Shown here one piece after another: positions 8,508 through 53,348 of a stretch of DNA of 53,348 nucleotides (its first letter is position 1; every line of letters begins with the position of its first letter). The position numbers were made by a program, and so were the translations under genes. The notes below the pieces were generated by a model, which had not been told where the DNA came from, made no database searches, and saw only the letters and a list, made by a program, of their open reading frames with translations. The DNA is from a virus, in the IMG/VR virus record IMGVR_UViG_3300011440_000005, positions 1-53,348 of that record; one strand, 5' to 3'.

Positions 8508-8832
8508 ACTTCTCCCCCCGCTCTGCACTTTGTGCGAATACCTTGACCCGAGTGGGGCGAAGAAGTGCGTGGCGTTCCCTGAGGGGATACCGCCTGAGGT
8601 GTGGTCCAATCAGCATCCCCACTTCACCCCCTACCAGGGCGAGCGTGTTGTGTTTAAACGAGCAAGTGACGTGGAGCCGGATCAGGTGGCAGCTTGGCAA
8701 GAGTTGCATGCTGAGTTGCAGGTAGCTGGTGTGGCCCCGGGTCTTCCCCAGGAGATGCAGGACGACTTATACTCCGACGATGACGGCGAGAGTCCACCTG
8801 AAGAAGCAAGTTCGCCGCAGCCGAGTTATTGA
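8500..8832 (+). CDS. Hypothetical Cys-containing protein (CTLC ... C, AFPEGIPPEV)
   Basis: ATG at 8500 overlaps the stop of the 1587-aa ORF (ATGGATGA); 110 aa. Confidence 0.6.
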   Translation: MDELLPPLCTLCEYLDPSGAKKCVAFPEGIPPEVWSNQHPHFTPYQGERVVFKRASDVEPDQVAAWQELHAELQVAGVAPGLPQEMQDDLYSDDDGESPPEEASSPQPSY

Positions 8833-9031
8833 GCTTTACGGGTACAGGTGCTACATGTGTGGCTGCCTGCTTACTGACGAGACCATGACTCTTGACCATG
8901 TGCGACCGAGGTCGAAGGGTGGGTCCAACTCTGTCGAGAACTTGCGCCCCGCCTGTTTCTCCTGCAACCAGCGGAAGGGCAGTAGCTCCCTGGAGTGGGA
9001 CGCCATCAAGAAACTGACGTGGAGGACTTGA
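8780..9031 (+). CDS. HNH endonuclease
   Basis: YGYRCYMCGC...TLDHVRPRSKGGSNSVENLRPACFSCNQRKG is a classical HNH/ HNHc pattern; start could also be 8729. Confidence 0.8.
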   Translation: MTARVHLKKQVRRSRVIELYGYRCYMCGCLLTDETMTLDHVRPRSKGGSNSVENLRPACFSCNQRKGSSSLEWDAIKKLTWRT

Positions 9032-9038
9032 CAGAGGG

Positions 9039-9064
9039 CGAAGGGGCTGTCTACAGCCCCTTCG
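9039..9064 (+). terminator. Perfect 11-bp stem / 4-nt loop hairpin after the HNH gene (no U-tract)
   Basis: cgaaggggctg-tcta-cagccccttcg read directly. Confidence 0.4.
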
Positions 9065-9111
9065 ACTACACTCCCGGGGCAGTTAAAGAGAACTTGGATT
9101 AGGGGGCACCA

Positions 9112-9141
9112 AATTAAAGTTTCAGGCCCGAAACTTTAATT
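9112..9141. promoter_or_regulatory. AT-rich 12-bp inverted repeat (aattaaagtttc / gaaactttaatt, 6-nt spacer)
   Basis: Perfect palindrome arms in an otherwise GC-rich genome; lies in the non-coding gap. Confidence 0.4.
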
Positions 9142-9154
9142 GTCCAGGTCATGG

Positions 9155-9222
9155 GCCGCAGGCGCAGGGCGCAGGAGAGCTTCCAAACCTCTCCGGGCAG
9201 GGTTCGATACCTTGATGCGGTG
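9155..9222 (+). ncRNA. tRNA-like element: canonical anticodon-arm/variable/T-arm/acceptor geometry with a CCA (Trp) anticodon, but a truncated D-arm region
   Basis: Acceptor GCCGCA(G)/(A)TGCGGT. Anticodon stem AGAGC/CCTCT with loop TTCCAAA (anticodon 9183-9185). Variable region CCGGG. T-arm CAGGG-TTCGATA-CCTTG. Only 14 nt where about 19 are expected for positions 8-26. No encoded CCA. Confidence 0.3.
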
Positions 9223-9224
9223 CT

Positions 9225-9288
9225 GAGGGGGGCTGTCTGCGTGGTGACGACCAGGCACCCAGTCCTCTGGTTCAAGCCAGCCCCCCTC
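9225..9288 (+). ncRNA. 64-nt structured element closed by an 11-bp perfect stem (gaggggggctg / cagcccccctc)
   Basis: Stem read directly; the interior has a tggt-gacg-acca hairpin and a GGTTCAAGCC T-loop-like string, but does not fold as a tRNA. Confidence 0.35.
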
Positions 9289-9322
9289 ATTGGCCCCAAC
9301 TACAACCTACGGGTGGTAGTTG

Positions 9323-9736
9323 ATGCTATGCACGACAGAAGGCTGCAACCGTCCCGCTCAGATCGACAAGACACTCTGCGGTTGGTGCTATCAGGGGACT
9401 CGCCCGAAAAAGCCTAGGAAAGATCGACGGGAAGCTGGTCGAAGGTACTACCAGAAGAAGCGGGCAGAAGACTCGGAGTACCTCCGCACAATAGGGAACC
9501 GGCCCTGGCTTGATGACCTGAAGGCTTCGACTCCCTGCGCTGATTGTGGGCAGATATACCCTGCTTGCGTGATGGACTTCGATCATCGTCCTGGTGAAGA
9601 GAAGCTCTTTAGGGTTGCAGGCATGGTTACTCGTCGTCGAGAGCTTGTCGAAGCTGAGATTGAGAAGTGCGACATTGTTTGCTCCAACTGTCATCGGATT
9701 CGCACTCATCTGACTCGCAAGGGCCGAAATGCTTGA
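9323..9736 (+). CDS. HNH endonuclease (second copy, different family)
   Basis: CADCG...MDFDHRPGEEK...IEKCDIVCSNCHRIRTH pattern typical of actinophage HNH proteins; ATG 9323 (TTG 9320 in the track). Confidence 0.8.
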   Translation: MLCTTEGCNRPAQIDKTLCGWCYQGTRPKKPRKDRREAGRRYYQKKRAEDSEYLRTIGNRPWLDDLKASTPCADCGQIYPACVMDFDHRPGEEKLFRVAGMVTRRRELVEAEIEKCDIVCSNCHRIRTHLTRKGRNA

Positions 9737-32846: not shown

Positions 32847-33060
32847 TGTACAACGTGCGGTGGTCACCAGGGCAGACGTAGTACCACTTGTCGCCCTCGC
32901 CCTTGTGATAGAACGTTCTGTCAGGTTTCCGGTCTGTCCGAGTCCACAACACTGGCCCGTAGTTATACGGGTCATTGTCGGTGACGTGAACCGCACCTTC
33001 GTAGTCGCACCAAACGAAGCCATTGACTTCCTGTAGGGGTGGGGTCATCTTGGTCTTCAT
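32812..33060 (-). CDS. Hypothetical protein downstream of integrase
   Basis: ATG 33060 in ATGA overlap with the integrase stop; 82 aa. Confidence 0.6.
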   Translation of the reverse strand: MKTKMTPPLQEVNGFVWCDYEGAVHVTDNDPYNYGPVLWTRTDRKPDRTFYHKGEGDKWYYVCPGDHRTLYIIVTMDESDPL

Positions 33061-33962
33061 ATGTCCCAACCTGCCTTCCTCACCGCTCGGGCGGCAGCGT
33101 CGGCCCGCTTCTCCAAGTAGACCTGGGTGGTGCCCAGGTTGCTGTGCCGCAGAGCGGCAGAGGTCGCTTCGATCCCAGCGAGCTTGTGTACCTGACCGGC
33201 GAACGACCGTCGCATGTCGTGCGGACTGAACTTCCCGTAGCGGCGCACCACGTTGTATACACCACTCCCGGAGAGCCGTTGACCCCACTCAGGGGTCTGG
33301 CTAACTTCCCCGGTAGCGAAGTTGACCAGTCTACGGAACCGTACTATCACCGGAGAGGCCCCCAGAACGCCGTCTAAGCCATTCTTTGCCTCGACCCTTA
33401 GGTGGGAGAGGGTAGAAGCCAGAGAATCGCTCACAGCGACGACAGCAGCCTTCCTGTTCTTACCCACGACTCGTATCTCCCTGCGTTCCAGGTCCACGTC
33501 GCCCCAGTTGAGGCTGGCTATCTCCGTGCGGCGGAGACCACAACCGAAACCGAGGCGTAGGATCGCCATGTCACGGACCCCCATCAGGGTGTCAGGTACC
33601 GCCCCCAGGACGTCCTCTATCTCGGAGCGCTCCATCCAACGATGCACAGCCACAGGCACCGGCTTTACCGGCACGAGTGCAGTGAGCCTAGCGGCAGGAT
33701 TGCTGGGGATGAGGTCACGGGTGTGCGCCCAGGTGAAGAACCCTTTCAGGTGGGAGCGGTAGTTGGTGCGGGTGGTGTCGCCGCAGGTCTGCTCCAGCAA
33801 CCAGTCGACGAGGTGCTTCTCAGTGAAGTTTTCCAGGTCGACGTGCGGGTAGCGCTCCTGCACTCGGGACAGGAGCCTGCGGTAGGTGGTGGCAGACTGT
33901 GTGGTGTGCAACCAGGTTGGGTCCGCTGCTCCCAGTTTAAACGCTTCGGGGTAGAGCCTCAT
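33057..33962 (-). CDS. int: Tyrosine recombinase / integrase (XerC/D-sized, 301 aa)
   Basis: ...HDMRRSFAGQV...LRHSNLGTTQVYLE is the C-terminal catalytic H-x-x-R ... H ... Y pattern; SAM-like N-terminal domain; start MRLYPE in ATGA overlap with the upstream micro-ORF (alt. 33989). Confidence 0.9.
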   Translation of the reverse strand: MRLYPEAFKLGAADPTWLHTTQSATTYRRLLSRVQERYPHVDLENFTEKHLVDWLLEQTCGDTTRTNYRSHLKGFFTWAHTRDLIPSNPAARLTALVPVKPVPVAVHRWMERSEIEDVLGAVPDTLMGVRDMAILRLGFGCGLRRTEIASLNWGDVDLERREIRVVGKNRKAAVVAVSDSLASTLSHLRVEAKNGLDGVLGASPVIVRFRRLVNFATGEVSQTPEWGQRLSGSGVYNVVRRYGKFSPHDMRRSFAGQVHKLAGIEATSAALRHSNLGTTQVYLEKRADAAARAVRKAGWDI

Positions 33963-34084
33963 TGCATGCCCGCTCTGCACCCCCGGCACACCCAGGTAGC
34001 CAGGAAGTATTGGTTCAGCAGGACTCCGCTGAGGACATCCATCTCATCGAGGGGGTACGTCCACTTGCAGATTTCACAAGCCAT
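33959..34084 (-). CDS. 41-aa zinc-ribbon micro-protein (MACEICKW...CRGCRAGMQ)
   Basis: Not in the ORF track (<60 aa); two CxxC pairs; stop overlaps the integrase start (ATGA). Confidence 0.4.
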   Translation of the reverse strand: MACEICKWTYPLDEMDVLSGVLLNQYFLATWVCRGCRAGMQ

Positions 34085-45449: not shown

Positions 45450-45631
45450 ATTAAGTACTCCAATCTCAGGGCAGCGCACTCTTTGCAGCGCAGCTTCCCT
45501 GTTCGTTTCGCTTCCTTGATTACGGTGGTCTGATTGACGGGCTGCCAACCCACCACTTCGACCTGGATTTGGTCACGGGCAGTGAGAGCGGTTCCGCATT
45601 TAACGCAGAGGCCGAGTATCATCTCAGCCAC
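45446..45631 (-). CDS. Zinc-ribbon protein
   Basis: CVKCG ... CKEC; start GTG 45631 or ATG 45622. Confidence 0.6.
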   Translation of the reverse strand: MAEMILGLCVKCGTALTARDQIQVEVVGWQPVNQTTVIKEAKRTGKLRCKECAALRLEYLI

Positions 45632-45818
45632 GCTCCCACCACCTCGGGTGTTGGTAGACGGCCCTATTGCCCCTTTCGGGACAACTCGGGCTGCATACGA
45701 ACAACCCCACGCCTGGCATGTCGGGATAGTTGGCGGGGGTCAGGTAGGTGTTGAAGGCGGGTGTGTCTATCCCACACAGCGCACATACTGGTTCCCACGG
45801 TTTACGCTTAGCGTTCAC
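45624..45818 (-). CDS. Small Cys-rich protein
   Basis: GTG start with GGAGG 8 nt upstream; CALCG ... CSPSC. Confidence 0.55.
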   Translation of the reverse strand: MNAKRKPWEPVCALCGIDTPAFNTYLTPANYPDMPGVGLFVCSPSCPERGNRAVYQHPRWWERG

Positions 45819-45839
45819 CAGTGGCCTCCAAATGGTCAG

Positions 45840-45927
45840 GTAGAACGTTCGGACGTTCTACTACGGTCTTCTGAGGTCATGGTCGTGCGCCTTGGGGCTG
45901 GACGAGTGTAAGCCCTTCACCAGCCCC
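45840..45927. promoter_or_regulatory. Two further hairpins in the 270-nt gap
   Basis: gtagaacgt-tcgg-acgttctac (45840-45861) and ggggctgg-N18-ccagcccc (45894-45927). Confidence 0.4.
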
Positions 45928-45958
45928 TCGGCGTTCCTGTCTTCCTCCTTGTGGTCAG

Positions 45959-46062
45959 CCGGTCCTGGTTTGGACCGGTCATTGAGGGGCAGCCTATAGG
46001 TAGGTCCAAAGCCTTACCGGATAAACCGGACACTTGGCACTAAACCCTGCCCCTCAATGGCC
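45959..46062. promoter_or_regulatory. Double-hairpin element A (paralogue of 48636-48723)
   Basis: S1 ccggtcc-tggttt-ggaccgg; S2 cattgaggggcag ... ctgcccctcaatg (13 bp). Flanked by an SD-like string, aggaggaagaca in minus sense, with no start codon after it. Confidence 0.55.
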
Positions 46063-46080
46063 CACCTCGTAGTCGAGGTG
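46063..46080 (-). terminator. Hairpin just downstream of gene 46091..46339
   Basis: cacctcg-tagt-cgaggtg, 7-bp stem. Confidence 0.35.
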
Positions 46081-46090
46081 AGCCAACCTT

Positions 46091-46339
46091 TCACTCAAAC
46101 AAGTAGTCGAAGTCCTCGGTCATTGCGGCGATGCCGTCAATGTCGTCACCGAGTAGCTCAAACATTGCCGCACTTACTGCGGCTGCCGCCTTGTTCTCGT
46201 TCACGCTGTGGTTCTCACCGAAGACATGGCAGCCCTCGGCTGCGAAGAGCCGCTGCGCTTGTTTAAACGGCACGTCATCGACCTCGTGCAGCGAGTCCAT
46301 CTCCCAGGGTTCGCCACACTGTGGGCAGCGAATATCCAT
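46091..46339 (-). CDS. Hypothetical protein (N-terminal CPQCG)
   Basis: 82 aa with a GAAGGAGG RBS. Confidence 0.65.
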   Translation of the reverse strand: MDIRCPQCGEPWEMDSLHEVDDVPFKQAQRLFAAEGCHVFGENHSVNENKAAAAVSAAMFELLGDDIDGIAAMTEDFDYLFE

Positions 46340-46402
46340 GATTCCTCCTTCTCCAAGTCCGAATGGCTTGGACAGAGCGCACCTTGATGCGCTCTGCTCA
46401 AG
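46340..46402 (-). repeat. Intergenic cassette copy 1 (hairpin 1 + hairpin 2 + AGAAGGAGG)
   Basis: Minus sense: cagagcgca-tcaagg-tgcgctctg; tccaag-ccattcgga-cttgga; gaaggaggaatcATG. Confidence 0.7.
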
Positions 46403-46990
46403 TCACCCATCGATCATTTCTATGTTGTCCTGCGGGCATATCGGGTAGCCGGTGTCCAACCATTTCTGCGTGACTCGCACCGTGTACCCACACTCAACGC
46501 ACATAGCCTTCAGCAGCCGGGTGCCCTGCTTGGGTCCACTGCTACTTGAGCCGGTTTTGATTGCTGTGTGCGGATACTCACCGAGGCGCTTCAATAACGG
46601 CTGAATAGCCTTCTTGAAGTCATCACCTGCGACCGTGGCGCTTGGTTTGCCAACTAGGCCGATCGCCCTGACGCTCTTCGTGAACCCCGCCTTGTGTCCA
46701 TCCGTGGGATGAGCAACATGCACAAGCTCGTGAGCGAGGGTTGCCAGCACCTCGACCGGGTCACTCAGTACTGGACTGACGAACAAATGACTGTCTTTGC
46801 GTTCCCCTGCGGGGTGCCAGCACTCACCGATCCGACGCTGACGGGCCGACGTTGCTCCCTTGGACGGCCAACCCACGCTAACCGTCCAGGGACTAAGCAA
46901 CTTGACTCCTGCGCCCTCCAGGAAGCCCTCCAGCAGCTTCCCGGCTTTGATGAGCCACTGCTCCCGGGTTACGGGCCTAGTGGCGCTCAT
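46403..46990 (-). CDS. SprT-like zinc metalloprotease with C-terminal zinc ribbon
   Basis: LAHELVHVAH (HExxH) and CVECGYTVRV...ICPQ. Confidence 0.75.
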   Translation of the reverse strand: MSATRPVTREQWLIKAGKLLEGFLEGAGVKLLSPWTVSVGWPSKGATSARQRRIGECWHPAGERKDSHLFVSPVLSDPVEVLATLAHELVHVAHPTDGHKAGFTKSVRAIGLVGKPSATVAGDDFKKAIQPLLKRLGEYPHTAIKTGSSSSGPKQGTRLLKAMCVECGYTVRVTQKWLDTGYPICPQDNIEMIDG

Positions 46991-47214
46991 AGCTCATCCT
47001 CGTGGCTGGCGTTGATCGCCAGCCAATCCTCTGCGATGTCACCGTTTGGGGCGATGAGTCCCGCATCAATGAGAGCTTGAGCGGTTCGACCATACGAACC
47101 TTGCAGACTCCAGGCCATACCAGTCCCAATCAAGTGACTGAACAACTCCAGAATCGCCTGGTCATCGGCCTCGCCAGTTTCGTAGGCCATGATGCCACTG
47201 ACTAAGTCATACAT
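46987..47214 (-). CDS. Hypothetical protein
   Basis: ATG 47214 (MYDLVSGIMAYE...) with a GAGAAGGAGG RBS; the long N-terminal extension in the track is Arg/Ser-rich shadow. Confidence 0.6.
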   Translation of the reverse strand: MYDLVSGIMAYETGEADDQAILELFSHLIGTGMAWSLQGSYGRTAQALIDAGLIAPNGDIAEDWLAINASHEDEL

Positions 47215-47287
47215 TCTCTGCCTCCTTCTCCAGTACTGAATGCACTGGTGGGAATGCACCGTGTTTAAACGGCACACTCCCATCAGG
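47215..47287 (-). repeat. Intergenic cassette copy 2
   Basis: Minus sense: 13-bp hairpin gggagtgtgccgt-ttaaac-acggtgcattccc (3 G.U) containing GTTTAAAC; ccagt-gcattcagt-actgg; agaaggaggcagagaATG. Confidence 0.7.
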
Positions 47288-47704
47288 TCACTCACACCAC
47301 ACCTTCTCGGTGCGCTTCTCAATGGTCGCACCAGGCCAGAACACACCATGCTCGGCCTCGACCGAACGCAAGTGTGCCAGCCACTTGTCCGCTTCCGCCT
47401 TCGTGCGGAAGTAGGCAATATGAACGGGGTAACCGAAGTTCGGCTCAGGGAAGGTTGCCTCCCACGAGGTGACCGTGATCTGTCGGTCATAACCCATTTC
47501 GCACGCCTGGCACAAATAGTCCGGTCCCGCCCAGGAGCCGATGAAGCTCCCATGACGGCAGTACTGCGAGGGGTCGTTGTGGTTGGCGTCGTAGCCAAGC
47601 TCGTCGTCTAGGTCACTGGTGGGGAACGGTGCCAGCCCGCCGTTGTCGACGGTTGGCCCGTCCTCATACCAGGACATTGGAACGTTGGTCTCTCCGTATG
47701 CCAT
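47288..47704 (-). CDS. Hypothetical protein
   Basis: ATG 47704 (MAYGETN...) after an AGGAGGAAG RBS; 138 aa. Confidence 0.65.
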   Translation of the reverse strand: MAYGETNVPMSWYEDGPTVDNGGLAPFPTSDLDDELGYDANHNDPSQYCRHGSFIGSWAGPDYLCQACEMGYDRQITVTSWEATFPEPNFGYPVHIAYFRTKAEADKWLAHLRSVEAEHGVFWPGATIEKRTEKVWCE

Positions 47705-47777
47705 GACTCTTCCTCCTGTTTTCCCCAATGCCTAATTGCACTGGTGAGAACGCCCCGTAGGGCGCTCTCATCAGCCT
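47705..47777 (-). repeat. Intergenic cassette copy 3
   Basis: Minus sense: gagagcgccc-tacg-gggcgttctc; ccagtg-caattagg-cattgg; aggaggaagagtcATG. Confidence 0.7.
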
Positions 47778-47810
47778 TCAGGCGTCAGATCGTTGGGTTG
47801 ACTTCGGCAT

Positions 47811-47876
47811 TTCCTATCCTCCTTCTCCAAGCTCCAATGGCCTGGTGGAAACGCAGCACGCTGCGCTCCCATTAGG
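47811..47876 (-). repeat. Intergenic cassette copy 4 (followed only by a 10-codon micro-ORF, 47778..47810)
   Basis: Minus sense: gcgcag-cgtg-ctgcgt hairpin; ccagg-ccattggag-cttgg; ggagaaggaggataggaaATG, identical to copy 5. Confidence 0.7.
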
Positions 47877-48125
47877 TCACGAGAATCGAAGTTCACTAAC
47901 AATGGCGTCGAACAGGTTCTCGCCACGCATCCAAGCGGTCTCGCCTTTGAAGGTCTTAGCCCGACCCTTGTAGGATCGACCACGCCACGGCTTGCTCGTT
48001 TCGATGTCTCGGGCTGTAACTCGCCACACGCCATATTCGTGATGGAAACCATCGGGTGTGGTGTATGCATCGGACTCCAATGTCACCGACACACCTTTGA
48101 CGGTGATTGAGTCGTGCAATTTCAT
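47877..48125 (-). CDS. Hypothetical protein
   Basis: 82 aa with a GGAGAAGGAGG RBS. Confidence 0.65.
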   Translation of the reverse strand: MKLHDSITVKGVSVTLESDAYTTPDGFHHEYGVWRVTARDIETSKPWRGRSYKGRAKTFKGETAWMRGENLFDAIVSELRFS

Positions 48126-48192
48126 TTCCTATCCTCCTTCTCCAGTCCACAGTGGGCTGGTGGGAATGCCCCGTAAGGCGCTCCCATCAAGC
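48126..48192 (-). repeat. Intergenic cassette copy 5
   Basis: Minus sense: gggagcgcc-ttacgg-ggcattccc; ccag-cccactgtgga-ctgg; ggagaaggaggataggaaATG. Confidence 0.7.
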
Positions 48193-48408
48193 TCACCAGC
48201 GGTCGACCTCATGCTCCCATTGAGCCTTCTCAACCTGGCTCATTGCTTGCCACTCTTTGAACTGGTCGAGGTGGCCTAGGCACATCGGCTCGTCCTTGCT
48301 GACGATTGCTCGCTCGCAACGACCACCCGAAGGGCCGAAGTCCTCATCGAAGTAAGGCACTATCTCGGCGCAAAGACCAGCGTCGTGAAGTGCTTCCTCG
48401 TAGTTCAT
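48193..48408 (-). CDS. Hypothetical protein
   Basis: 71 aa with a TAGGAGGAAG RBS. Confidence 0.65.
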   Translation of the reverse strand: MNYEEALHDAGLCAEIVPYFDEDFGPSGGRCERAIVSKDEPMCLGHLDQFKEWQAMSQVEKAQWEHEVDRW

Positions 48409-48419
48409 GCTTCCTCCTA

Positions 48420-48617
48420 TCAGATCGTCACGTCGAAATGGTCAATGGTCAGAACGTTGCTGTCGGGCAGCATCACTTCGTAGTAACGCTCATCAGCGGG
48501 GTAACGGCGAACCGAAACCTCAGTGCCAACAGCAAAGCTTGCACCAGTGAAATGACCAATCTCCCGGTTCAACCATGCGGTGAACCAGGGGTTGTTTGAA
48601 TCTTGGAAGTAGCTCAT
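48420..48617 (-). CDS. Hypothetical protein, first gene of the leftward block
   Basis: ATG 48617 (MSYFQDSNNPW...) after AGGAGGAAGACAA; the track start 48656 lies inside element B. Confidence 0.6.
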   Translation of the reverse strand: MSYFQDSNNPWFTAWLNREIGHFTGASFAVGTEVSVRRYPADERYYEVMLPDSNVLTIDHFDVTI

Positions 48618-48635
48618 TTGTCTTCCTCCTATCAG

Positions 48636-48723
48636 CCGGTGACGTTCACCGGTCATTGAGGGGATCAGAGCATCCAGGCTTGCCTAGGTTCCTGGTAGCT
48701 ATAGCCCGATCCCCTTAATGGCC
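48636..48723. promoter_or_regulatory. Double-hairpin element B (paralogue of 45959-46062)
   Basis: S1 ccggtga-cgt-tcaccgg; S2 cattgaggggatc ... gatccccttaatg (13 bp, one G.T); lies 19 nt from the start of 48420..48617. Confidence 0.55.
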
Positions 48724-49795
48724 CGCCAGGTTGTCCTAGCGAGCCGAAGGAAGAAAAAGAGGTTCTCACTCACCCCTGCGTGACCTGGCCGTGGTTGTCT
48801 CTCCACGGTCGCCCGCTCCCGAGGTGGTCGGGGTGGTCCTTCCGGTGCTGCGCACCTTCAGCTTTCCCCTGGCGATCGGCTGGAGAGCCGATCAACCCCC
48901 TCCGGGGTCAAGGCCAGGTTCTGAGGGCAGGAGCCACTCCCGAGGCCGGTGGTGACCTTGGCCCGAGGGCTGATCGAGTACCGGCAAGCCGGACTCTAGT
49001 CGACCAGTACGACAACGTCAAGTTCACCAGTAAACCCCAGTTCTGGCCGTTCTCGAGAAGGTTGCACAGTGCAACCAACAGGGGAACGGGCCGAACTGCC
49101 CGATAAGCCTGGCGCTTAACCCCCCGCCCCCAGTGGGTGGAGCGAAATTGAGCGCCCACTCAAACTAAGGCTGGCACCCGAAGGAGGGGCAGCACGCAGG
49201 TAGATGTCAAAGACAGCGCCACTAACAGAGGTGATGCACCAGGCACCATGCGGTGGTGATGCAGCCAACAGCCTTACAGCGTTATATAGCTCACTCGAAC
49301 AGTGTTCGATAGCTCAAATGAGTGTGATCTGCACCCACAACGAGCACGTGACCAGCCCGTCCTGCGAGTGCAACGGTCCAACCAACAACACAGCGCACAA
49401 ACACCCAGGTCAGGAGCAGAAATCAACACCAACAGCCGAAAGGCTGACCGGGGTCCATTTATTTCCCCAGCAGCAGTGTGGGGAAGGTCACTGTCACAAG
49501 TACCGGACAGTCCAGTGTCTGTTAGGGGTGCTAGTAGCCTGTTTAGTAGCTGTTTGTTGGCTTGGGCCAGGTCAACTTGGGGCTTGGTGGGGGCTTCGCC
49601 CCCTTTAGCCACCTGTTTCTTGGTGTTTGTCAGTGGTTGACTACATGTGGAGGGGGTGTCCCACCCCCGACGTGTCAGCAAACTAAGAACTAGTGCGGCT
49701 TCGCCGCCTTGCTGGACGCAAAGAACGACCCTAGGGCCGGGGGGGTATCTTTCGACTGTGCCTGGTAGGGGCTGCCAGGGCTAGACGAAACCCGG
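48724..49795. other. 1.07-kb region without credible ORFs; hairpin- and repeat-rich (candidate large ncRNA(s) and/or replication origin)
   Basis: All track ORFs here have implausible composition. Multiple 6-9-bp perfect stems, tandem repeats and an AT-rich palindrome are listed under findings. Confidence 0.6.
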
Positions 49796-50278
49796 TTAGG
49801 AAGGTAGAACCTTCTGGACTCGACGCTTCAATTCTTGTAGCTGCTCGTCAACAGTGGAGTTGACACTCGGACGGCTGTCGGTGTTGGTTACGCTCCGCCC
49901 AGCCCACGAATCTTTGTTGGTTCGTTGAAGCTGGTCGATGAGCCTGGAGGCTTCTCGCCTGGCGATGGGTATTTCCCCAGCCCAGCCAAGACCTCGTATG
50001 TAGTTCCGCTGTGCCTGGGTTGTCTCCCACCCTGGCGCTGCTGGCTTCCTAACAGGTCGGGACGAGCGGACTAGTGGTTTCTGCTCCAATGGTCGGGTGT
50101 CTGCTCCAACGAGCTTCGCCCAAGCTTCGATCCGGCTCGGGTCGTTGCGGAGTAGGCCGATGAGTTGAGTGGCCGCTCCGAGGGTGGGCGGGATTTCCGC
50201 CTCCCATCCCATTGAACGGAGAGTGTCGATCTCTCGTTGTGATGGGCCGACCTGGCCTCTCCGTCGTCTTGTGGTCAC
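49796..50278 (-). CDS. Hypothetical protein with two copies of a c. 35-aa helical repeat
   Basis: SQREIDTLRSMGWEAEIPPTLGAATQLIGLL and TQAQRNYIRGLGWAGEIPIARREASRLIDQL; GTG 50278 preferred over the Arg/Pro-rich extension to 50389. Confidence 0.55.
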   Translation of the reverse strand: MTTRRRRGQVGPSQREIDTLRSMGWEAEIPPTLGAATQLIGLLRNDPSRIEAWAKLVGADTRPLEQKPLVRSSRPVRKPAAPGWETTQAQRNYIRGLGWAGEIPIARREASRLIDQLQRTNKDSWAGRSVTNTDSRPSVNSTVDEQLQELKRRVQKVLPS

Positions 50279-50444
50279 TGTCTCTTCCTGCTGTCGTGTT
50301 CGATGGTGGAAGCCCCGCCCCCCGAGGGGGGAAGGAGGGAAAACCACCTCGGGCACCCTTGCGGGCCAGCCTGAGCGAGGCTTCCACACATACCCCCCGA
50401 GAAGTGTCCTCAGAGGGCTTGACCAAGCTAGCCGACCAGTCGAC

Positions 50445-52245: not shown

Positions 52246-53348
52246 ATGGCTGACCCCACCAACCCCGCTTACGCCGCCTGGTCCCGCCCCCGCCGAGTAG
52301 CAGCCGCAGTCCGCAAAGTCGTCGAAGACCAGTGGACCATTGTTGATTCCGCCCGTGAGTTCGGTGTCTCCCGTCCCTGGCTCTCCAAGAAGGTGGGGGA
52401 AGAGCGCCAAGCCATCGAAGCGAAAGTCGCTCGTGCTAGGGAGATACTCAGCCAGCGAGGGCCACGCATCGAAGAGAACACCCGGGTCGGCACCTTTGCT
52501 GAGTTTGAGCGCCGCTACTTCGGCCACCTCGGATGCCCCGACTGTGACGGGCAGATGCACGAGGTGCCCGACTGGCAGATCAAAGCCGATGAGGTGGTCA
52601 CTTCCACTGCCAAGCGGAAGCTCATCAACGTTCCACCGTTCCACGGTAAGACCACCCGCTATTCCATTCGGCACACCATTTATGACATTTGCCGTGACCC
52701 GAACAGCCGGACGATCATCCTTTCCAAGGCTGCCCCTCTGGCGGAAGACATCCTCGGGGCGATCAAAGCTCACCTCATGGACGAGGCGCTCTACGACAGC
52801 CACAACCTGATTGGAGACTACGGGCCGTTCTACAAGCCTGGCTCCTGGTCCGACGACCACATCTTCGTCACCGGTCGGGTCACCTCGGAGAAAGACCCAA
52901 CGGTTCTCACCATGGGTTGGACGGGTTCCCTTTACGGTCGGCGTGCCGACAAGATCAAGTTCGATGACGTAGCGGACGAACAGAACCAGGCGAACCCCGA
53001 CCAGGTCGCCAAGATGCTGAAGTGGATTGACCGCACCGCCCTGTCCCGTATCGGGAAGACCGGCCAGGCCGTCTTCATTGGTACCCGGGTCTCCAGCGGT
53101 GACATCTACTACCACCTGGCTAAGAGGCCAGGGTATGAGGTGGTCCGCTTCCCCTGTGTCCTCGATGAGACCAACGAGGAAGTGTTGTGGCCCGACCATT
53201 TCCCCTATGAGCAGGCGCTGATCCACAGGTCTGAGATGACAATGGCCGACTTCCAGTTGGTCTACCAGAACATCGACATCCCCGGGATCGGAGCTTCCTT
53301 CACGGAGGAAATGCTGGAGTTGACGAAAGACCCGTTGCGGGTACTCGG
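52246..53348 (+). CDS. terL: Terminase large subunit, N-terminal part (HTH-like leader + ATPase); continues at base 2
   Basis: ATG 52246. WTIVDSAREFGVSRPWLSKKV is HTH-like. Walker A PPFHGKTT (c. 52645) and Walker B KIKFDDVADE. The ORF is open to the window end; the full gene is 635 aa across the junction. Confidence 0.85.
   Translation, partial: MADPTNPAYAAWSRPRRVAAAVRKVVEDQWTIVDSAREFGVSRPWLSKKVGEERQAIEAKVARAREILSQRGPRIEENTRVGTFAEFERRYFGHLGCPDCDGQMHEVPDWQIKADEVVTSTAKRKLINVPPFHGKTTRYSIRHTIYDICRDPNSRTIILSKAAPLAEDILGAIKAHLMDEALYDSHNLIGDYGPFYKPGSWSDDHIFVTGRVTSEKDPTVLTMGWTGSLYGRRADKIKFDDVADEQNQANPDQVAKMLKWIDRTALSRIGKTGQAVFIGTRVSSGDIYYHLAKRPGYEVVRFPCVLDETNEEVLWPDHFPYEQALIHRSEMTMADFQLVYQNIDIPGIGASFTEEMLELTKDPLRVL
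53226..53348. repeat. Window-terminal direct repeat, identical to 1-123
   Basis: See first feature. Confidence 0.95.

Follow-up and report, generated by a model that had tools for sequence, protein, structure and literature searches.

Paired leader cassettes around a small-gene array of a phage genome: candidate punctuation of a leftward mRNA

The 53,348-base viral sequence analyzed here (IMG/VR record IMGVR_UViG_3300011440_000005, hereafter the window) is an essentially complete phage genome with a G+C content of about 59%, in which two paralogous elements, A and B, lie at either end of an array of small leftward genes. We found A and B to be copies of a single folded leader cassette of approximately 130–150 bases, larger than first described, whose last component is a Shine-Dalgarno (SD) sequence. 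Neither copy has the features that define membership of any sequence-defined family with which it was compared, which makes the cassette a new RNA motif, of a general kind that is already known. Judging from comparative context, mRNA processing, stability and translation would be its most likely function. More specifically, we propose that A and B may be a portable, cis-acting mRNA “punctuation” cassette, which would mark the boundaries of transcript segments through processing or protection, supply a signal for translation start and, as a by-product, offer homology for genetic exchange; we advance this proposal tentatively, as a real possibility that falls short of being probable.

In the minus sense both cassettes comprise, in order, an 11-bp hairpin (H0), a 12-bp stem with a branched tip of 41–54 nt (S2), the dinucleotide GA, a 7-bp hairpin (S1), CUGA plus 1–5 nt, and the SD-containing string AGGAGGAAGACA. 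Similarity between the copies runs from the first base of H0 to the base preceding the start-codon position, and its boundaries are sharp. S1 follows S2 after 2 nt, and H0 abuts S2 without a spacer in both copies; because it does so and also covaries, H0 belongs to the element. A and B have the same SD and, in every helix, the same 5–9 bp next to the junction, and conserved unpaired nucleotides are few (GA, CUGA, the loop AC.A and CUAUAG). AGGAGGAAGACA occurs at only two places in the window, 45938-45949 and 48619-48630 (0.39 expected), and the combined S2 pattern, CATTGAGGGG followed after 35–65 bases by CCCCTYAATG, matched only A and B in the window and gave 0 matches in 100 shuffles.

The whole of cassette A occupies 45938-46084 on the minus strand and scores 161 bits with R1, a covariance model of A and B. 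Its H0 (46059-46084, loop ACUA) starts 6 nt past the UGA stop codon of g82 (gene names of this form give the product length in amino acids). The 12-bp stem of A-S2 (45981-46058) pairs AUUGAGGGGCAG with CUGCCCCUCAAU around a 54-nt branched interior that holds the palindrome CCTATAGG (45993-46000), and A-S1 (45959-45978, CCGGUCC/GGACCGG) follows after the GA. The string AGGAGGAAGACA of A (45938-45949) is predicted to be mostly unpaired and is an orphan SD, with no start codon at a usable distance. In element B the repeat unit lies at 48619-48745, also on the minus strand, or at 48619-48754 if a 5′ pyrimidine tract is included, and scores 128 bits with R1. It consists of H0 (48720-48745, loop ACAA), S2 (48655-48719), with one A·C mismatch in the 12-bp stem in the minus sense and a 41-nt interior holding the palindrome GCTATAGC (48698-48705), and S1 (48636-48652, CCGGUGA/UCACCGG), after which come AGGAGGAAGACA, one spacer base and the ATG (48617-48615) of g65, this last stretch spanning 48615-48630. 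The first-pass annotation had read the S1 stems (ccggtcc/ggaccgg in A, ccggtga/tcaccgg in B), the opening CATTGAGGGG and closing CCCCT(C/T)AATGGCC of S2, the innermost S2 pairs (cag/ctg in A, atc/gat in B), the identical string after both elements, the ATG after B and the lack of a usable one after A, and all of these were confirmed in the sequence. It had also placed three further hairpins around A; one of them is H0, with its covarying counterpart in B, and the other two (45894-45927 and 45840-45861, minus strand), which lie between A and the start of g64, are absent from B.

Comparison of A with B indicates that the pairing has been maintained while the copies diverged, as all 30 of the pairs in H0, S2 and S1 are intact in A and 10 of them differ from B on at least one side. 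Twenty of the 30 are unchanged between the copies, eight are changed on both sides and still Watson-Crick, and two are changed on one side; three of the pairs altered on both sides lie in H0, which in A also has one U·G pair that is valid only in the minus sense. The earlier claim of a selected secondary structure is thus supported by eight compensatory pairs with both copies intact. A tool count on a MAFFT alignment catches 4 of the 8 double changes, because the inner pairs are misaligned there. In a slide control 98% of cells were paired, compared with at most 52% when the partners were slid, while a shuffle control, in which 32 of 500 shuffles reached the observed value, is weak because there are only two sequences.

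Which strand is folded had been called unclear, and the data resolve this modestly in favor of the mRNA. Read in the minus sense, the two copies contain three G·U cells, all in H0, and one A·C mismatch (in B-S2), compared with three C·A mismatches and one G·U in the plus sense. Minimum free energies are lower in the minus than in the plus sense, and fold z-scores against shuffled sequences are -5.8 (A) and -4.6 (B) in the minus sense and -4.8 (A) and -4.2 (B) in the plus sense. This wobble asymmetry, the energies and z-scores, the position of the SD at the end of the cassette and a minus-only G·U pair in the intergenic repeats of the same array (IGR, see below) lead us to identify the folded molecule, with moderate confidence, as the leftward mRNA.

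The most informative result comes from the slots that A and B occupy. The nearest non-identical DnaB relatives are about 50% identical, and searches with both the SprT-like protease and DnaB left a gap between about 52% and 95–100% identity; we fetched L016, L018, 39 metagenome loci and 15 IMG/VR loci, several of which duplicate loci from the metagenome set. In the GC-rich relatives, a type II hammerhead is found in nearly every gap between small early genes, on the gene strand and straight after a stop codon, and a conserved SD string lies 5–15 nt further on, followed by ATG. There are eight hammerheads in L070 (474-3915), seven in L025 (1933-3916), five in L052 (3107-7352), two in L018 (1-725) and one each in L022 (101-164) and L047 (6196-6262).

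A second family, a mini tRNA-like three-way junction, fills other gaps and, in L047, L060, L019 and AT-rich marine relatives, most of them. Each module is closed by a 6-bp stem and contains an arm of 5 bp, a hairpin that resembles a T-arm and has a loop of 7 nt, and an ACGA that never varies; a 7–8-bp hairpin, a short linker, an SD and ATG come next. All 16 predicted pairs covary, and the model that we built from the relatives (R2) finds 75 copies, all on the gene strand, including about 15 in L047 (739-5904) and others in L060 (667-4995), L019 (63-4094), L025 (4157-5413), L031, L065 and L067. The family was not detected in Rfam scans of the carrier loci (at E ≤ 0.1 in L025 and L070, at gathering thresholds in L019, L031, L047, L060 and L065). 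Its presence in hammerhead slots suggests a tRNA-type punctuation of phage mRNAs. Three loci also have mini tmRNA-like domains near the border between array and core (L018 1936-2018, L070 4979-5060 and L025 6066-6146; 44–61 bits with the Rfam transfer-messenger RNA, tmRNA, model), in which about 26 nt replace the mRNA-like part and the 3′ context is that of the mini tRNA-like modules. That relatives mix hammerheads and tRNA-like modules argues that these modules do the same job. The slots of the window contain neither hammerheads nor mini tRNA-like elements and are instead filled by two private families, five copies of the IGR and, at both ends, A and B.

We also searched for further members of the A/B family and for known families that might include it. 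R1 finds A and B alone, in the window and in identical contigs, and megablast and blastn of the element region found no match in GenBank phages. Rfam scans at gathering and at permissive thresholds returned nothing relevant (45500-49200 at E ≤ 10, the whole window at E ≤ 5). Within those scans, the twister, twister-sister, pistol, hatchet, hepatitis delta virus (HDV)-like and hairpin ribozyme models gave no match, nor did the hammerhead models, with which the same scans find hammerheads in the relatives. Reading A or B as a type I, II or III hammerhead was rejected, as the core is lacking: CUGAUAG (B) or CUGACCA (A) follows S1 and there is no GAAA before a stem. ARAGORN called no tRNA or tmRNA gene in the window, where the Rfam tRNA and tmRNA models likewise had no match, and with filters off the best R2 match in the window (11.2 bits, E = 0.2) lies within a coding region and not at A or B. 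A tRNA-like domain (TLD) of tRNA or tmRNA type was rejected too, since no T-arm lies beside the 3′ strand of S2 and the tail is UCAAUGA; the GGGGCAG of A resembles a TLD acceptor stem weakly and B does not have it. The IGR model (R3) has no match at A or B.

The two copies differ in how their SDs are presented. In B, the strand UCUUCCUUC (P0, 48746-48754, minus strand), directly 5′ of H0, is predicted in silico to pair with GGAGGAAGA of the SD with a probability of about 0.9, and this pairing would close a four-way junction of P0, H0, S2 and S1 before g65. Element A has no P0 partner strand, its SD is mostly free, and two unrelated hairpins and a separate SD for g64 follow. The only promoter-like site in 45.4-50.8 kb (TTGACG-17-TAGAGT, 48993-49021, minus strand) lies about 250 nt upstream of B, and a weak terminator-like hairpin at 48758-48777 (minus strand) has a U/C tract (48746-48757) that doubles as the P0 strand. 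As regards the earlier placement of the elements at the heads of leftward gene blocks, B is not at the head of the whole arm, since g197 lies upstream. A consensus scan found no minus-strand terminator downstream of B or A in 45.4-48.6 kb (types without a U tract would escape it), the single candidate in the vicinity being the hairpin upstream of B, no promoter or terminator was found on the plus strand in the scan of the region, and there are no promoter-like hexamers inside A or B. A leader RNA of about 230 nt (roughly 48985-48750) could be bounded by the promoter-like site on one side and the terminator-like hairpin on the other. Separately, the 3′ half of B-S1 together with CUGAUAGGAGGAAG recurs at the g65/g71 junction (48410-48433, 20 of 24 bases), which argues that a ribosome-binding module has been reused beyond A and B.

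We infer that cleavage, stabilization, regulation and recombination may all take place at A and B. Under the punctuation proposal, the cassette would define the ends of mRNA segments, either as a cleavage site for a host endonuclease or as a barrier to exonucleolytic decay; the segment downstream would be shielded by the hairpins and by the SD with its bound ribosome, and the cassette would set initiation for whatever gene follows. Translation of g65 would then depend on the opening or processing of the four-way junction in B, and the exposed SD of A, at the seam between array and core, may stabilize the mRNA or be a recombination scar.

The IGR give direct evidence of the gain and loss of genes. 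The five copies in the window (46335-46405, 47212-47290, 47708-47778, 47809-47879 and 48124-48195, all minus strand) begin with a UGA stop, which is followed by an 11-bp hairpin (GGGAG..UCCC), a second hairpin (CCAG..CUGG) on which the first is directly stacked, AGAAGGAGG and AUG. Eight of the 17 pairs covary, and a G·U pair present in five of six copies is valid only in the mRNA sense. Copies are confined to 46.3-48.2 kb in the window and are absent from the relatives. Contig L002, which is >99.5% identical over the common sequence, carries three extra small genes (604 bp; L002 4143-4854), inserted precisely at one IGR copy and with IGR copies as their flanks, when compared with 47771-47812 and 48124-48195 of the window, where a 10-codon mini-ORF (open reading frame; 47771-47812) between two repeats is the 3′-end remnant of one of the extra genes. 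Since the three-gene difference sits at IGR copies, the intergenic repeats of the array act as joints for gene gain and loss. The only genes of the window that recur in many of the DnaB-related loci are g69, g263 and that of the helix-turn-helix (HTH) protein, and g82 has a homologue in one of these loci, L018. The other genes between B and A are missing from the relatives, which marks them as accessory and places A at the seam with the conserved core. From the sharp boundaries, the orphan SD and the position bracketing this accessory block, we infer that A and B may themselves serve as joints for homologous recombination, and the identity of the SD and the junction-proximal pairs means that they offer homology for the gain and loss of cassettes. 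The earlier suggestion of recombination sites thus survives in the form of homologous joints, for which L002 provides an analogue, and not in a site-specific form: the arrangement is the same in six independent contigs, a small sample in which no variant has the A-B segment deleted or inverted.

Both S2 interiors contain an 8-bp palindrome around CTATAG, a hexamer with five occurrences in 53 kb, and are otherwise unalignable. The outer pair of the palindrome covaries, and the palindrome adjoins opposite S2 arms in A and B. An inversion of the S2 interior between the copies was considered and is not established, as the interiors align in neither orientation beyond the position of the palindrome. 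A possible diverged third copy, C, lies at 9198-9321 and consists of a hairpin, a stem (CTGAGGGGGGCTG/CAGCCCCCCTCA) followed by TTGGCCCC, and another hairpin; it has the stem UGAGGGG/CCCCUCA and the flank TGGCCC in common with A and B. The corresponding 14-mer, at no more than one mismatch, matches A, B and C only (0.03 expected), and R1 does not recover C. The surrounding 290-nt gap (9032-9320) is highly structured, with a perfect 12-bp AT-rich hairpin at about 9112-9143, and separates two HNH ORFs (8729-9031 and 9320-9736) that are wedged between giant ORFs of 1587 and 1794 aa.

Several of our observations weigh against the punctuation proposal. There are only two copies, both in one genome lineage, and the near-identical contigs L001-L005 have no substitutions in A or B, so that there is no independent phylogenetic covariation. 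A covariance-model search, the check put forward earlier, brought up no homologues: R1 found nothing significant in 54 related loci or in five loci around a homologue of g82. Exact and degenerate S2 patterns had no match in IMG/VR, and their 10 matches in GTDB genomes are close to the chance estimate; the one actinomycete match that was read has no long stem. Position alone is the argument for a functional equivalence of A and B with hammerheads and tRNA-like modules, and the models of those families miss the window. The intactness of A could reflect recent acquisition and not a function in its present place. Finally, the shared CTATAG palindrome and the orientation of C, which in absolute terms is that of A and B and is opposite to local transcription, fit a DNA-level or strand-independent role better.

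Such a DNA-level role, in which the palindromes act as cruciforms or single-strand hairpins for protein binding, for priming or replication, or for recombination or inversion bracketing the array, would also account for the fact that every helix is a DNA inverted repeat, for the rare CTATAG in both S2 interiors with its covarying outer pair and flipped position, and for the constant absolute orientation of C where local genes run the other way; moreover, a variable block lies between A and B, which are direct repeats, and a tyrosine recombinase is encoded at 33057-33989. We nevertheless give it a low probability. The wobble asymmetry favors the mRNA sense, the distal stems covary, unlike protein half-sites, and the cassette includes an SD and ends at a start-codon position; in addition, the six contigs show no A-B deletion or inversion, the recombinase gene is 12–15 kb away, the covariance model misses C, and S2 interiors of 41–54 bp are too short for invertase synapsis. 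The same wobble asymmetry and the three C·A mismatches make it highly unlikely that the elements encode a small RNA in the plus (antisense) orientation or are independent small RNA genes: the G·U of B-S2 is valid only in the plus sense, folding is good in that sense too (z-scores of -4.8 and -4.2) and C would be sense for the plus strand, but no plus-strand promoter or terminator was found and the SD is in the minus sense. A P4-like regulatory RNA, one of the roles put forward at first, finds no support either, given that A and B are direct repeats and not mutually complementary, that no promoter or terminator for a small RNA was seen and that the wobbles favor mRNA. By contrast, processive antitermination of the put type, which had also been put forward, agrees with the presence of two paralogues, both sense-oriented for a single direction of transcription, whose helix bases are conserved and whose tips covary, which is the kind of evidence by which HK022 putL and putR were defined, and with the location of B about 250 nt downstream of the only promoter-like site. 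The cassette RNA would bind polymerase and permit read-through of the hairpins that do follow each element, namely five IGR double hairpins beyond B and two hairpins beyond A. Even so, we consider it improbable, because there are no canonical terminators downstream, A is about 2.9 kb from the promoter-like site and would be redundant if modification at B were processive, three helices with a long branched S2 contrast with a two-stem fold, the sequence resembles nothing known, and the relatives have RNA-cleaving modules, not antiterminators, in this slot.

The predicted occlusion of the SD in B (probability about 0.9) could instead point to a translational operator or riboregulator, with the B junction as a protein-, temperature- or ligand-driven switch that masks the SD of g65 and A as a decoy, a titrating copy or a relic; the strict conservation of junction-proximal pairs would be expected of a recognized surface. 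This seems unlikely in view of A, which has neither a masking strand nor a gene and is yet structurally intact, of the P0 strand, which doubles as the U tract of the terminator-like hairpin, and of the neighboring proteins, which have no known domains and offer no candidate binding protein. The state of A also bears on whether the pair is an evolutionary by-product, A being a recently duplicated or acquired B-like leader that has lost its gene, so that only B, if either, is functional. While the orphan SD ends exactly at the position of the lost start codon and the array holds gene remnants between repeats, A has kept all 30 pairs despite 10 that differ from B, eight of them on both sides, and has kept the CTATAG palindrome in a wholly different S2 interior, which leaves this a doubtful account. 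An unlikely extension of the punctuation proposal is that A and B, perhaps with the IGR, are a third, undescribed kind of punctuation module, interchangeable with hammerheads and tRNA-like elements and acting either as a new self-cleaving fold or as a mimic of a host RNase substrate (RNase P, III or E); early polycistronic RNA would then be cut to gene length by swappable modules that travel with their ribosome-binding sites. That the cassette is by itself a new class of self-cleaving ribozyme is very improbable. The genomic slot is that of hammerheads in the relatives, and new ribozyme classes have historically been found beside hammerheads and twisters in such contexts (PMC5737381), but conserved unpaired nucleotides are few, the helices are perfect near the junctions without internal loops, no ribozyme model matched at E ≤ 5 to 10, and the hammerhead core (CUGANGA plus GAAA) is absent.

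The genome around the cassettes is essentially complete. Its two ends (1-123 and 53226-53348) are identical over 123 bp and the ORF of the large terminase is continuous across the junction; at about 53.2 kb, the contig is thus a genome either closed into a circle or redundant at its termini. Several metagenome assemblies carry identical or near-identical contigs of this phage, and no GenBank phage is a close relative (at most 34% identity for the major head protein, about 46% for the SprT-like protease). Structural genes run rightward, and a long leftward arm extends from about 50.4 kb down to about 33 kb. In this arm, g197 (49796-50389) lies upstream of B and is separated from the small-gene array by a 1.18-kb stretch without a called gene (48618-49795) that contains B; the non-coding sequence upstream of B had no match in GenBank phages. 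This stretch also contains three spaced repeats of a ACAGTGCAACCAACA-like sequence (at 49066, 49213 and 49373), a tandem pair (at 49276 and 49299) and a 30-nt imperfect palindrome (49038-49098). The array from B to A (48617-46091) has eight genes, of which seven are small, namely g65 (48420-48617, minus strand), the first small gene after B, g71, g82b, the 10-codon mini-ORF, g138, g75 and g82 (46091-46339, minus strand), which is zinc-ribbon-like and directly upstream of A, and the eighth encodes the SprT-like protease. Downstream of A are g64 (start at 45818), g58, g69, g175, g263, the HTH protein, a PD-(D/E)XK nuclease, DnaB and a primase, and the tyrosine recombinase lies farther along the arm. 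When ten flanking small proteins were compared with Pfam and PHROGs, g75 matched DUF7417 and a PHROG counterpart of unknown function, and one sub-threshold match to DUF2180 was seen. The sole non-phage homologue of g82 (53% identity) is present in L073-L077, which are Logan contigs and the contig JAIXKQ010000217.1 of an NCBI metagenome-assembled genome (MAG); one copy is in a MAG labeled Dehalococcoidia. These loci look like an integrative conjugative element or plasmid (RadC, DUF932, DUF6094, helicase), and this location hints that the array genes may be accessory or anti-defense genes of mobile elements.

If A and B serve in RNA processing or stability, this lineage provides a natural experiment in which one slot is filled by hammerheads, mini tRNA-like elements or triple hairpins, and module swaps would make the long-open question of the purpose of phage hammerhead arrays directly testable. 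It would also show RNA structures and ribosome-binding sites traveling jointly, as recombination-ready cassettes that shuffle small accessory, and possibly anti-defense, genes. Should the cassettes be only structural relics or DNA sites, they would be of local interest. The main value of the analysis is the lineage-wide picture of interchangeable intergenic RNA modules.

Among known systems, the RNase III signals of the T7 early genes are paralogous irregular hairpins that lie between cistrons and share sequence near their base; besides leaving hairpins that are protective, their processing can alter how the next gene is translated, and the SP82 5′ stabilizer is a similar system. Each T7 signal consists of one hairpin, about 20 bp long and with an internal loop, whereas S2 is a perfect 12 bp with more helices beyond its branch, its total helical length being plausible for such a substrate and its shape irregular. 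HK022 putL and putR are two paralogous RNAs of two stems each that act in cis, just downstream of promoters and upstream of terminators. A and B resemble them as two multi-stem RNAs of the sense transcript whose differences keep the pairing, and differ in that A is far from a promoter, no canonical terminators follow either element and the sequences are not similar. The STAB-SD of Bacillus thuringiensis cryIIIA is an mRNA stabilizer that acts near a mapped 5′ end; A likewise has at its end a strong, unpaired SD that no start codon follows, upstream of a long mRNA, in a different organism and context. A conceptual parallel to the tRNA-like modules of the relatives is the “tRNA punctuation” of mitochondrial transcripts. 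Like A and B, these modules, including the TLDs, have a G/C-rich stem that closes a branched domain, then a 5-nt linker (ACGAU in the modules, AAUGA in A and B), a 7–8-bp hairpin, a linker of 5–9 nt, an SD and ATG, and are located near the seam between array and core. Apart from the G3·U70 position, the inner S2 of A (GGGGCAG/CUGCCCC) is the same as the TLD acceptor stem, but A and B have no T-arm and no ACGA or ACCA tail and do have the extra 5′ hairpin H0 and a closing stem of 12 bp.

Repeats that combine an SD or a stem-loop with small genes have been described in other phages. Cluster K mycobacteriophages carry 11–19 copies per genome of a 13-bp start-associated sequence (SAS), GGGATAGGAGCCC, at start sites (Pope et al., 2011; PMC3203893). 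About half of the copies have an upstream imperfect inverted repeat (17 bp; extended SAS, ESAS) with a variable spacer, and the repeats, whose function is unknown, are thought to act in translation initiation (PMC3203893). As in A and B, an SD-containing repeat stands directly upstream of start codons; the layout is analogous only, since A and B lack GGGATAGGAGCCC, have three helices compared with one inverted repeat, and are present in two copies (plus the five IGR). In T4-type phages, promoter early stem-loops (PeSLs), each an early promoter and a terminator stem-loop, flank small accessory genes that are gained and lost as modules (PMC2839356; PMC4122927). The IGR that bound the gene indel between L002 and the window are similar to these cassettes (Arbiol et al., 2010; Comeau et al., 2014), but A and B contain no promoter-like hexamers and the L002 indel is bounded by the IGR, not by A and B. 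For hammerhead arrays on either side of individual prophage genes, Perreault et al. (2011; PMC3088659) proposed a role in processing, by which long transcripts would be divided into mRNAs of gene length. Unlike hammerheads, A and B have three helices in series, no three-way catalytic junction and no CUGANGA/GAAA core. The organization is otherwise alike: in the hammerhead arrays, as in A and B, a folded RNA of about 60–130 nt occupies the slot after a stop codon, in the mRNA sense and as a repeat of the early array, and is followed by an SD and the next small gene, and in the hammerhead-bearing relatives paralogous copies likewise carry an identical SD string, such as GGAGGACAACATG, which occurs twice in L018.

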